This document shows, piece after piece, positions 6,001 to 9,000 of a stretch of 10,428 nucleotides of DNA; position 1 is the stretch's first letter; the number at the start of each line of letters is the position of its first letter. This stretch comes from a virus. Taxonomy: Duplodnaviria; Heunggongvirae; Uroviricota; Caudoviricetes. The stretch lies in the IMG/VR virus record IMGVR_UViG_2541047776_000001, positions 1-10,428 of that record; one strand, 5' to 3'. The position numbers are program-made.

Positions 6001-9000
6001 ATTTTTGTAGAGGCAACGATTCAAGCAAGTAAAGAAACTTACATAACCTCTGCAATACAATACGCACCAAAAAAAGGTGGTGTCGTTGAATCTGGTGACT
6101 ATATTTATCTGGCCACCCCTCAGGTTGAGGATGGTTCGTGTGTATCATCTTTTATTATATCAGGAACGACGGCGGCGACGCGCGCAAGCGATATGGTTAC
6201 AGTTCCGATTAAGAATAATCTTTATAATCTTCCTTTTACGGTTCTTTGTGAGGTACATAAGAACTGGTATAAAACGCCAAATGCAGCGCCACGTGTTTTT
6301 GATACCGGCGGTCATCAAACCGGAGCGGCTATTATTCTTGGCTTCGGATCTTCGGCAGATGGGCCAGACGGATTTCCTTATTGCGATATTGGTGGATCAA
6401 ATAGGCGTGTTAACGAAAACGCATCGTTGAAAAAAATGGTTATGGGGATGCGTGTAAAGTCAGATCAGTCTACATGTGCAGTAAGTAACGGGCGTATATC
6501 CAGCGAAACAAAAACCACATGGGAATATATCCGGAGTACAGCAACCATTCGCATTGGTGGACAAACTACAGCAGGATTACGCCATTTATTTGGGCATGTG
6601 AGGAATTTTCGTCTCTGGCATAAAGAGCTAACAGATGCGCAGCTTGGGGAGGTTGTGGAGTGAGAGATTTCACGTTGCGTTTCAGTGATAAAGCAGATTT
6701 CAGGGCATTTCTCAGGAAACTTAACTGGGAAGAGGACGAAGAGCTGCAGAATGCCGTTCTGGTTGATGAGATTGGTTTTACGTTCAGGGAGACAGATGTT
6801 TCTGATGACGGAGAACCAGAATACACGCGAAACGAAGGGTACTTTGTTAATATCCGTCTTCTTGACGATGGATTTGATGATTCCGTGTTCCGTGAGTGGG
6901 TGGTTACACCAGAGCGCCCGCTCAGGGAGTGGTTTTAAGGATAGCAGATGGATATCACGTCGATACTTCATGCGCTTTGTGCCGTGGCGGTGCAGGTACT
7001 GGCTGGTCTTTTTACCGGAAACTGGGCTTACGGGGCGATAGCCGGTTGTACGTTCTTCATTGCGCGTGAACACACCCAGGCAGAATATCGCTGGATTGAA
7101 ATGTTCGGGCATGGCAAGCGGATTAACATGCCGTGGTGGGGCGGTTTTGATCCACGTGCATGGGATGTGGCAAGCCTGATGGATTTTGCTGTGCCGGTGG
7201 TGGCGTGTCTGCTGGTCTGGCTGTTGGTTAATCGTGGGTGAAAAAGGTGAGCAGTATATGCAACGAAGGAGGAAACATCATTGCTGGCGGCATGGAAGGC
7301 ATGCAGGGTGTTGCTGAACCGTGTTGATACATCAACTGCACCTGATATTGAGTGGCCTACGAACCCTGTCAGGGAGTAATCATTGGGATTATGCCGCAGC
7401 ACGTCTTAAGCAAGAACGTGCTGCGGTTGGATGCTATTTTTTCCCTGAAGCGGAAAACATTACTACAGTACCTTGAACCTTGGTTTTAACATTCTCGAAA
7501 TGCTCTGAGAGTATATGTGTTAAGCCTTCTTCGGAATCTTTTGTGTTTGAAAAGATGCCTTTCTGATTGTAAATGCGCATCAGTTTTTGACCGAAGCTAT
7601 TGTGCACAACGCCGTCACCAAGAATTGTGGCTCCGTATAGAGTTCCATCGTCAGTTAAGGCCTGCGCCGCATTGCGTATTACACAGCTTTTTGTAGATAT
7701 ATTTCCAGGCAGGCAGTGAAGAAGGTAAAACATGGAAATGGAATCAAATTGACCATGTAACGCCGCGGGATAAGGATCAAAAACATCATGGCTAATTTTA
7801 TGTTTAATTTTTGATTCCCCAGCCCTTGTCGATGCCGCGTTCAGGCTAGCTTCGTTCAAATCCATTAAAGATATCAGACTACTCTCAGGTACGTGAGTAA
7901 GGTAAAACCCAGTTCCAACGCCAATATCCAGATGGTTGTTACCTAAATGTTCCAGAAAGTGTGGAAGAAGGTGTTCCTTTGTAGGACATCCCCATGCAAG
8001 CCGATTTGATACTCCCAAAACCCACCAGTCATAAAGCTTTAGGGTAAGTGGTGTGTAAATTTTAGCCCCATCATCTGTGTTTTTTTTCATTAGTTTCACC
8101 GTATTATAGTTTTATTTGTGAATTAAATCAATTATGGCGATGAATTACAAGGGGTTAAATGCTGCCGCAGCATAGCGATATTGAAATAGCCTGGTATGCT
8201 TCGATACAGCAGGAGCCGAATGGCTGGAAGACCGTCACCACACAGTTCTACATCCAGGAATTCAGTGAGTATATTGCGCCACTGCAGGATGCTGTAGATC
8301 TGGAAATCGCAACGGAGGAAGAAAGATCGTTGCTGGAGGCATGGAATAAATATCGGGTATTGTTGAATCGTGTTGATACATCAGTAGCTCTGGGTATGAA
8401 GCTGTTTGTAACTCATGTTACAGTAACAGCCATTACTATCTCGAAGGTGCAAAATGTATATTGATTTGATATTTTATAAATTTACTTCGAATCTGGCACG
8501 TCAACTTTTGATTAAAGTAATATCAGTTTTCGGCGAAAAAAGGACCGTGTACATGAGACGATTTCATACAAGAATAACAAAAATATGAATATGCTCCCAA
8601 TGCAATATATGTTTTGCATTGGGAGCAAATAGCGGAATATTTTGAAATTATTGTATTTCTGCTTCAGAATTTCCTGGGCAGTATATATTTTCTGGTTTTT
8701 GTGGAGTGATCAGGTGATGTACAACTGCTTTATCTACACATAAATTAACTCCGGTGAGAGCTAATGTATGCCCATCACCATTTATTGTTAGTAACGGGCT
8801 GGAAAATTTCTCTGCCATCTTACGGGCATTAATCCAGGGCGTTGTTGGGTCGTATTTGTGTGCTACAAACAGTAAACCAGAGGGCAGAACAGTATTTTTC
8901 AGGCGAGTTTTGTTCAGGTCGCTATGTATTGGCCATAATTCACAAAAATCAGGTGAATCGGAACGTCCATTGTCAAAGTTAATAGCCGGGAAGGCATTCG

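Follow-up and report, generated by a model that had tools for sequence, protein, structure and literature searches.

The stretch of DNA analysed here, referred to as the window, comprises 10,428 nucleotides (positions 1 to 10,428 of the IMG/VR virus record IMGVR_UViG_2541047776_000001) and, judged from its list of open reading frames (ORFs) and their Pfam matches, is the tail end of a lambdoid Escherichia coli prophage. Our subject is a minus-strand gene that lies past the tail-fibre genes and encodes a predicted S-adenosylmethionine (SAM)-dependent methyltransferase of 218 amino acids (aa), and that is an intact allele of ybcY (b0562), a pseudogene in the DLP12 cryptic prophage of E. coli K-12. 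The encoded protein is identical to RefSeq WP_000742376.1, which RefSeq/PGAP names 'class I SAM-dependent methyltransferase' and gives the same ATG start and the same 218 residues. Read mechanically, the frame begins earlier, at an in-frame GTG that would extend the protein to 221 aa; this GTG is probably not used as a start codon, and since it lies 3 nt past the -10 hexamer of the promoter candidate P1 discussed below, it would be found 5' of the transcription start predicted for that promoter. The initial annotation described a stand-alone, AT-rich gene with no nuclease or specificity gene next to it, and on all these points it was right: the GC content of the gene is 41.6% (37% at third codon positions), compared with 47-56% for the stf, orf97 and lom genes, 27.9% for the 68-bp spacer just upstream and 49% for the whole window, and neither a nuclease nor a specificity gene adjoins it, the flanks being two tfa remnants and a gene for a secreted alpha/beta hydrolase (Table 1).

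The K-12 gene occupies the same place in its prophage, in the order tfaD - ybcY - tfaX - appY - ompT, and is preceded by the same promoter region (TTGATT-17-TATAAC). Its frame differs from the window protein by three amino acids, and its pseudogene status follows from the change of the ATG to ATA together with the loss of one A from the next A-run. Where K-12 has appY as the downstream neighbour, the window copy has the secreted hydrolase instead. Region 7300-8500 of the window is 100% identical to E. coli ECO20, ECO21 and N32 and 99.9% identical to IHE3034, PMV-1 and many genomes of extraintestinal pathogenic (ExPEC) and avian pathogenic (APEC) E. coli; of 5426 complete E. coli genomes, 4666 contain some match to it and 3416 match at least 80% of it. 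The feature is thus already known, ybcY being annotated in thousands of genomes. It is also carried, at 98.6-99.5% protein identity, by the inducible lambdoid phages ev243, 2G7b (genus Nesevirus), Kati, Turner and the PhiR series (PhiR26, PhiR29, PhiR30, PhiR49 and PhiR68), in which tail-fibre genes lie on one side of it and abhydrolase-ompT-integrase on the other, and it has a PHROGs entry (phrog_2132, function unknown). Allele counts were taken from the best 80 phage-borne matches in IMG/VR, all of which are the E. coli allele; the full 218-codon frame is present in 79, and there are only five protein variants. ECO20 and IHE3034 have, 5 kb away, a second copy that is 99% identical; its neighbours are a further ompT and remnants of an integrase gene and of another tfa gene, an arrangement that points to prophage remains lying in tandem at the DLP12 site. 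The DLP12-like prophage of BL21(DE3) (NC_012971.2, ~550.5-552 kb, our locus L190) ends inside the tail-fibre gene at a junction close to cusS, a single deletion having taken ybcY, ompT and their neighbours.

Table 1. Features of the window and the second ybcY copies. Positions are those of the window unless a locus is named.
Feature	Position	Strand	Remarks
J, C-terminus	303-1436		
IS66-family element	1384-3837		2454 bp; orfA 1465-1869, orfB 1866-2213, transposase 2262-3800
lom	3939-4538		
Side-tail-fibre gene	4597-6663		
Small ORF, 92 aa	6660-6938	plus	PHROG 1361 (function unknown), no Pfam match
Small ORF, 97 aa	6948-7241	plus	PHROG 1443 (function unknown), no Pfam match
tfa remnant, 3' end only	7260-7379	plus	Convergent with the methyltransferase gene; PGAP pseudogene in identical genomes; D1 repeat copy 7260-7334
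Hairpin	7394-7426		Perfect stem of 11 bp; separates the methyltransferase stop codon from the tfa remnant at 7260-7379
ybcY-type methyltransferase coding sequence	7434-8090	minus	218 aa + stop; ATG 8090-8088, stop 7436-7434
GGTGA, Shine-Dalgarno-like	8096-8100	minus	5 nt 5' of the ATG
In-frame GTG	8097-8099	minus	3 codons 5' of the ATG
Promoter candidate P1	8103-8131	minus	TTGATT 8131-8126, 17-nt spacer 8125-8109, TATAAT 8108-8103; read from sequence
Promoter candidate P2, overlapping P1	8131-8158	minus	TTAACC 8158-8153, 16 nt, CATAAT 8136-8131; scan score 9/12
Second tfa remnant (tfaX-like, C-terminal half)	8159-8464	plus	Divergent from the methyltransferase promoter; Caudo_TAP, PHROG
Secreted TAP-like alpha/beta hydrolase	8648-10132	minus	494 aa; Abhydrolase_1 and Abhydrolase_4
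Second ybcY copy, ECO20	L001 14488-15156		
Second ybcY copy, IHE3034	L002 14493-15161		

By its predicted features YbcY is a class I SAM-dependent methyltransferase of 24 kDa that should bind SAM and transfer its methyl group. It matches the generic class I Pfam profiles Methyltransf_12 (37.5 bits, cut-off 30), Methyltransf_23 (28.7, cut-off 27) and Methyltransf_11 (24.4, cut-off 21.2), and its motif I reads LDIGVGTG at residues 54-61, where the glycines of GVGTG (57-61) at positions 57, 59 and 61 show no variation or almost none; D77 is conserved without exception in the family and D102 in its Enterobacterales members. An AlphaFold2 model built with 32 homologues (pLDDT 91.4) has the seven-stranded alpha/beta fold with Rossmann topology, and in this model the Rossmann core and two N-terminal helices make up the whole chain. 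The nearest structures found with Foldseek are JHAMT, PmtA, SgvM, phosphoethanolamine methyltransferases and CysG, none at more than 21% identity; small-molecule enzymes make up the great majority of the structural neighbours, and the few tRNA-modifying ones (CmoA, Trm9, METTL6) rank lower. A search of PDB sequences with the single protein returned only weak matches, to JHAMT and UbiG (E ~1e-3). Profile classification, the check named in the initial annotation, assigns YbcY to no housekeeping methyltransferase family in NCBIfam: among the families compared, which included UbiG/UbiE, PmtA, RquA, Tam and CmoA, no NCBIfam/TIGRFAM equivalog scored above its cut-off, the best being PmtA (17.7, cut-off 390), CpaM (16.9, cut-off 180) and RquA (16.8, cut-off 175). 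A phospholipid N-methyltransferase of the PmtA type, suggested by the top NCBIfam and Foldseek matches, was considered and rejected, as that score is far under the cut-off and no better than many others, and JerF, introduced below, is far closer. That a DPPY/NPPY-type motif is missing, as first noticed, was confirmed by a regular-expression search of YbcY for (D/N/S)PP(Y/F/W) or, for C5 enzymes, PCQ plus ENV, which found neither; there is only a DPYP at residues 105-108. The accompanying suggestion of a small-molecule, RNA or protein target in preference to DNA can be narrowed, in that homology to JerF and the structural matches favour a small molecule and an RNA or protein target is now less likely.

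A full-text search for the family motif HLDVGVGTG led to a single paper, which prints the sequence of JerF (PMC6273487). This enzyme of jerangolid biosynthesis in Sorangium cellulosum 4-O-methylates the enol of 6-substituted dihydropyran-2,4-diones in cell-free assays, with strict regioselectivity and a broad substrate tolerance (PMC6273487). YbcY and JerF align end to end in BLASTP (37% identity over 214 aa, E = 3e-48), and the family profile matches JerF in hhalign with a probability of 100% (E = 8.5e-74, 223 columns). JerF itself shares 55-58% identity with stand-alone members (those from Azotobacter and Sorangium, for example) and so falls within the family and not at its edge, and it keeps all of the family-conserved residues: Y20/D21, W33, C35, HLDxGxGTG, D77, H125-C126, K134 and N182/D185. 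On this homology YbcY belongs to the JerF O-methyltransferase family, and its chemistry would be O-methylation. The link is absent from current annotation and provides a testable hypothesis, namely O-methylation of enolic lactone or pyrone-like molecules. AurI and EncK, named in the same paper as analogous pyrone O-methyltransferases, are likened to JerF by function (PMC6273487). The BL21(DE3) empty-vector control reported there is uninformative on YbcY because that strain does not have this locus.

The family is large and widespread: an exhaustive search found 1317 cluster representatives with E <= 1e-3, 195 of them with E <= 1e-30, from Proteobacteria, Planctomycetes, Acidobacteria, Actinobacteria, Cyanobacteria and fungi, the fungal members (Atractiella, Endocarpon, Alyxoria) being ~50% identical and in some cases lying inside longer gene models. 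Closer to home, homologues from Enterobacterales and one Pasteurellaceae genus, at 56-90% identity, share 60 invariant residues. Y20, D77, H125, G153 and D185 are invariant family-wide, and Y12, D21, W33, C35, G57/59/61, S117, C126, P128, G129, K134 and N182 nearly so. The family also includes a fusion of methyltransferase and cytochrome P450 (719 aa) and a 510-aa fusion whose N-terminal part resembles a U32 peptidase by eye (the fusion and fungal members are our proteins P0239, P0247, P0140, P0146 and P0165). Neither the protein searches nor the cluster look-up returned a functional name for any homologue, only generic or UbiE/UbiG-like automatic annotations.

Profile searches of the PDB point to a second relationship, as the best sequences are CysG and BelI (E ~1e-6; hhalign probability 97.7%). 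These are carboxyl O-methyltransferases with a calcium-dependent His122-His123-Asp191 site (PDB 9FCD and 9FCE; PMC11408123), which methylate 3-alkylmalates in beta-lactone pathways (PMC11408123). In the alignment His122-His123 fall opposite H125-C126 of YbcY, with a cysteine in place of the second histidine; the SAM contacts Asp77 and Asp102 of CysG happen to be numbered as in YbcY, with YbcY D77 placed by hhalign opposite the Asp of CysG 'LLQDRS'. From these alignments and the conservation within the family, His125, Cys126 and Asp185 are the probable active or metal site of YbcY.

Genome context was sampled in 80 GTDB species-representative loci and 10 individual contexts, among which there was no conserved operon partner, the gene usually being monocistronic. 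Short-chain dehydrogenase/reductase genes (13/80), ABC ATPase genes (11/80) and LysR genes (9/80) were rejected as partners, as these are generic superfamilies and their distance and strand vary. The member from Sorangium sp. So ce131, which is 58% identical to JerF, lies 113 bp past a polyketide synthase (PKS) terminal module with the domains KS-AT-DH-ACP-TE (locus L017, 1-6660), in what is possibly a jerangolid-like cluster. The window gene is not located in a polyketide cluster; this Sorangium relative is the only one seen beside a PKS, most of the 80 loci being stand-alone.

How the gene is transcribed can be read in two ways. A promoter with TTGATT and a perfect TATAAT at 17-bp spacing, called near-consensus in the initial annotation and coupled there to a near-leaderless start, is indeed present (P1; minus strand, 8131-8103), and with 10 of 12 consensus positions it is the top sigma-70 match across 6900-8700. 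Its predicted transcription start at ~8096 would leave a 6-nt leader without a Shine-Dalgarno element, the -10 hexamer being only 12 nt from the ATG. A site scoring at least 10/12 occurs in 3.5% of dinucleotide shuffles of the upstream 150 nt, and the whole window has two such sites where 1.96 are expected; by sequence alone P1 is only modestly above chance. It gains support from its placement just 5' of the start codon, from its retention in all copies (~90 were examined) and from published binding of the RpoD holoenzyme. In genomic SELEX (systematic evolution of ligands by exponential enrichment), the K-12 ybcY/tfaX spacer was bound in vitro by the RpoD holoenzyme and was also flagged as an H-NS site (PMC3946193), and Shimada et al. 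assigned to it the promoter TTGATT-17-TATAAC on the basis of sequence only (PMC3946193). The spacer promoter was already listed in 2014. The -10 hexamer of P1 is polymorphic (T/C), and the perfect TATAAT of the window is the minority allele, found in 19 of the 80 IMG/VR copies compared with 60 of 80 for TATAAC.

The near-leaderless part of the initial annotation fared less well, as a second candidate, P2, overlaps P1 and occurs in all alleles. Its predicted start at ~8124 would give a 34-nt AU-rich leader that is effectively unstructured (-2.2 kcal/mol) and that would include the GGTGA 5 nt ahead of the ATG, which enters the mRNA only if transcription begins 5' of the start predicted for P1. 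Elements of the GGTGA type are complementary to the 3' end of 16S rRNA, and this one is kept in nearly all alleles (AGTGA in 2 of ~90). The alternative, which concerns the transcript and not the identity of the gene, is a conventional mRNA that starts at P2 and is translated by way of the GGTGA, and its chances seem to us only a little short of even. The predominance of TATAAC in P1 is in keeping with it, as is the second genomic copy of ECO20 and IHE3034, where P2, the upstream candidate, reads TTAACC-16-TATAAT with the perfect hexamer, and P1 has TATAAC at -10. On the other side, P1 is the closer to consensus in the window (10/12 vs 9/12) and is the site that Shimada et al. chose, albeit from sequence only. 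As the resolution of SELEX cannot separate the two promoters, a near-leaderless transcript is one of two live readings.

Downstream, 8 nt past the stop codon, lies a hairpin with a stability of -23.9 kcal/mol (z -5.9) in minus-strand RNA. There is no U tract on the coding strand, and a plus-strand run of U begins 10 nt beyond the stem; from its fold it is plausible as a terminator in either direction. On the other side, a terminator-like hairpin (8592-8627) belongs to the hydrolase gene upstream of the methyltransferase gene, and since the hydrolase gene has this hairpin of its own, the methyltransferase gene would be monocistronic. An apparent promoter of its own (two consensus-like sites, and holoenzyme binding published for K-12), a GC content below that of the neighbouring phage genes and a position between phage genes together make up the pattern of a 'moron'.

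We consider it probable, at roughly 70%, that this gene is a prophage moron, an intact ybcY encoding a stand-alone, JerF-type small-molecule O-methyltransferase that acts for the lysogen. As a monocistronic accessory gene at the tail-fibre end of DLP12/Nesevirus-like lambdoid prophages, it would be transcribed against the phage late operon from the sigma-70 promoter or promoters in the 68-bp, 28%-GC spacer, probably under H-NS control, given the binding of H-NS to the K-12 spacer. The product would bind SAM through its GxGxG motif (G57-G61), D77 and D102, by homology, and may move the methyl group onto the oxygen of an acidic enol or a hydroxyl group in a small molecule by way of His125, together with Cys126 and Asp185. 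It would do so without partner genes, on an exogenous or diffusible metabolite and to the benefit of the lysogen; the lack of partners, the patchy distribution and the carriage by mobile elements together suggest such a compound rather than a dedicated pathway. Several observations weigh against this interpretation. An identity of 37% to JerF fixes neither the substrate nor the acceptor atom, the absence of a conserved neighbour means that the substrate cannot be inferred from context, and the YbcY equivalent of Asp191 in the CysG metal triad is not confidently placed in the alignment. K-12 and BL21(DE3) live without a functional ybcY, which makes it dispensable, and the binding of H-NS suggests that the gene is possibly silent under laboratory conditions. 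The missing U tract leaves a dedicated terminator undemonstrated, and the literature searched yielded no experiments on YbcY itself, the mentions of STM1638 (the Salmonella homologue), ybcY and c0651 being incidental, in the case of STM1638 as a landmark.

Foremost among the competing explanations is that the gene is evolutionary baggage, a silenced or decaying passenger without function in E. coli that hitch-hikes with the end of the prophage. Its decay in K-12 and deletion from BL21(DE3) are what would be expected of such a passenger, as are an H-NS-bound spacer, a majority of alleles with TATAAC and so without the -7 T, and the occurrence of truncated forms (P0028, for example, with 161 aa and 445 members). 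A decaying gene would hardly, however, retain the full frame in 79 of 80 prophage copies and show no more than five variants of the protein, nor would the Enterobacterales homologues be expected to hold 60 residues invariant, with catalytic and SAM-binding motifs intact, or ECO20 and IHE3034 to keep two copies; we regard this explanation as quite unlikely. An enzyme that methylates RNA (tRNA or rRNA) or protein is very unlikely. The class I fold does not tell substrate types apart, and CmoA, Trm9, METTL6 and RsmC do appear among the weaker structural or profile matches, but dozens of small-molecule enzymes match at least as well, and YbcY has no RNA-binding extension and a near-neutral isoelectric point (pI) of 6.86. 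Moreover, JerF, the sole characterised member, works on a small lactone, other members are fused to a P450 or lie 3' of a PKS, and the patchy, mobile spread is atypical of modifiers of the translation machinery. Orphan Dam/Dcm-like enzymes are common in temperate phages, and YbcY, being phage-borne, stand-alone and equipped with a SAM-binding GxGxG, might be thought to be another, an orphan DNA methyltransferase that acts on phage or host DNA in anti-restriction or epigenetic control, but the odds of this are next to negligible, and it was rejected along with a role in a defence system: motif IV and PCQ are lacking, the 218-aa model has no target-recognition or other extra domain, there are no DNA methyltransferases among its top 50-60 structural matches, PADLOC gives one match at chance level (13.9 bits), the pI is near neutral, the full-length homology is to a small-molecule O-methyltransferase, and the homologues are chiefly chromosomal and include fungal ones.

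The company that YbcY homologues keep on mobile elements adds a further dimension to the small-molecule O-methyltransferase reading. A tblastn search of plasmids located family members on 761 records, of which Klebsiella accounts for 603. On the K. pneumoniae hypervirulence plasmid pKP33-Vir (NZ_CP154394.1; locus L186, 7995-8648) a 65%-identical homologue lies divergently ~540 bp from rmpA, and near rmpD, rmpC and peg-344; on Erwinia pEA29-type plasmids a homologue adjoins thiOSGF and a choline transporter, and the family is also present on Prescottella equi pVAPN, where an SRAP gene is adjacent, and on many Rhodococcus and Nocardia plasmids. The homologue on a Rhodococcus fascians plasmid was considered as a cytokinin-pathway methyltransferase and rejected, as it is outside the fas locus. 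Other homologues include those of Citrobacter braakii (68%; locus L184, 7001-7657), found with sodC, dinI, sopA-like and nleG genes, and of C. freundii (90%; locus L181, 7001-7666), found with genes for an SRAP peptidase, dinI and a CdiI-like immunity protein. STM1638 of Salmonella enterica (57%; locus L005, 8001-8663) is chromosomal, flanked by a PMT_2 glycosyltransferase-like gene and the rydC small RNA/cybB locus, and lies a few kb from sseJ. It is tempting to speculate, although we think it unlikely to prove correct, that YbcY-type enzymes form a mobile one-gene module for detoxification or signal editing that improves fitness in a host-associated niche and has hence been acquired repeatedly by virulence-associated elements. 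The carriers would be E. coli prophages by ompT/lom, Klebsiella plasmids by rmpADC/peg-344, Citrobacter prophages by sodC/nleG, and Erwinia and Rhodococcus plasmids; a JerF-like enzyme would cap an acidic enol in a microbial or dietary compound (a pyrone, a tetronate or one of the 4-hydroxyquinolone type), and the His-Cys(-Asp) site of this enzyme might represent the metal centre of CysG/BelI in a variant form that contains a thiol. As it stands, ybcY is a catalogued accessory gene of small importance, which would rise if its substrate were found, particularly as most E. coli, ExPEC and APEC lineages among them, have the gene in intact form and inducible phages carry it together with ompT and lom. 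What is added here is the assignment to the JerF family, the alternative transcript model and the recurrent tie to virulence-linked mobile elements.

The remainder of the window bears the marks of exchange and insertion. The IS66-family element, bounded by an 8-bp target duplication (1376-1383 and 3838-3845), is inserted 26 nt 5' of the stop codon of the tail-tip gene J and replaces the last codons of this receptor-binding protein; the ECO20 prophage, otherwise identical to the window, does not have it. The methyltransferase gene is bracketed by a direct repeat, D1 (7260-7334 and 8309-8383, 81% identical and 1049 bp apart), whose copies belong to the two tfa remnants, and pairs of tfa 3' ends like this one usually mark mosaic exchange at tail-fibre modules. 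The second remnant covers positions 75-121 of the 131 in the Pfam profile Caudo_TAP and has a PHROG match to tail fibre assembly. A full tfa chaperone would be expected 3' of the tail-fibre gene, but the 92- and 97-aa ORFs are found there instead; 3' of them there is only a 120-nt tfa remnant, and phages so arranged are nonetheless inducible. In related genomes and phages the hydrolase gene is placed between the methyltransferase gene and ompT; its matches are to PHROG 20134 (function unknown) and to the PADLOC candidate PDLC01094 'C3a206' (E = 4e-57).

Set beside known systems, YbcY is most instructively compared with CysG and BelI, with JerF and with the established morons of lambdoid phages. 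It is not a member of the CysG/BelI family: the identity is ~18%, and Arg22, the carboxylate clamp of CysG, lies in an 8-residue segment that YbcY lacks. JerF and YbcY are of the same size and are both class I SAM enzymes, but JerF is a tailoring enzyme in a polyketide gene cluster, whereas YbcY is part of prophage cargo without biosynthetic neighbours. In this last respect ybcY resembles the morons lom, bor, sodC and ompT, being likewise an independent unit of lower GC content near the tail-fibre end; it sits among lom, ompT and the secreted hydrolase, just as its Citrobacter homologues lie beside sodC, nleG and sopA-like cargo. The products of the classical morons, however, are mostly surface or secreted proteins, whereas that of ybcY is cytoplasmic.

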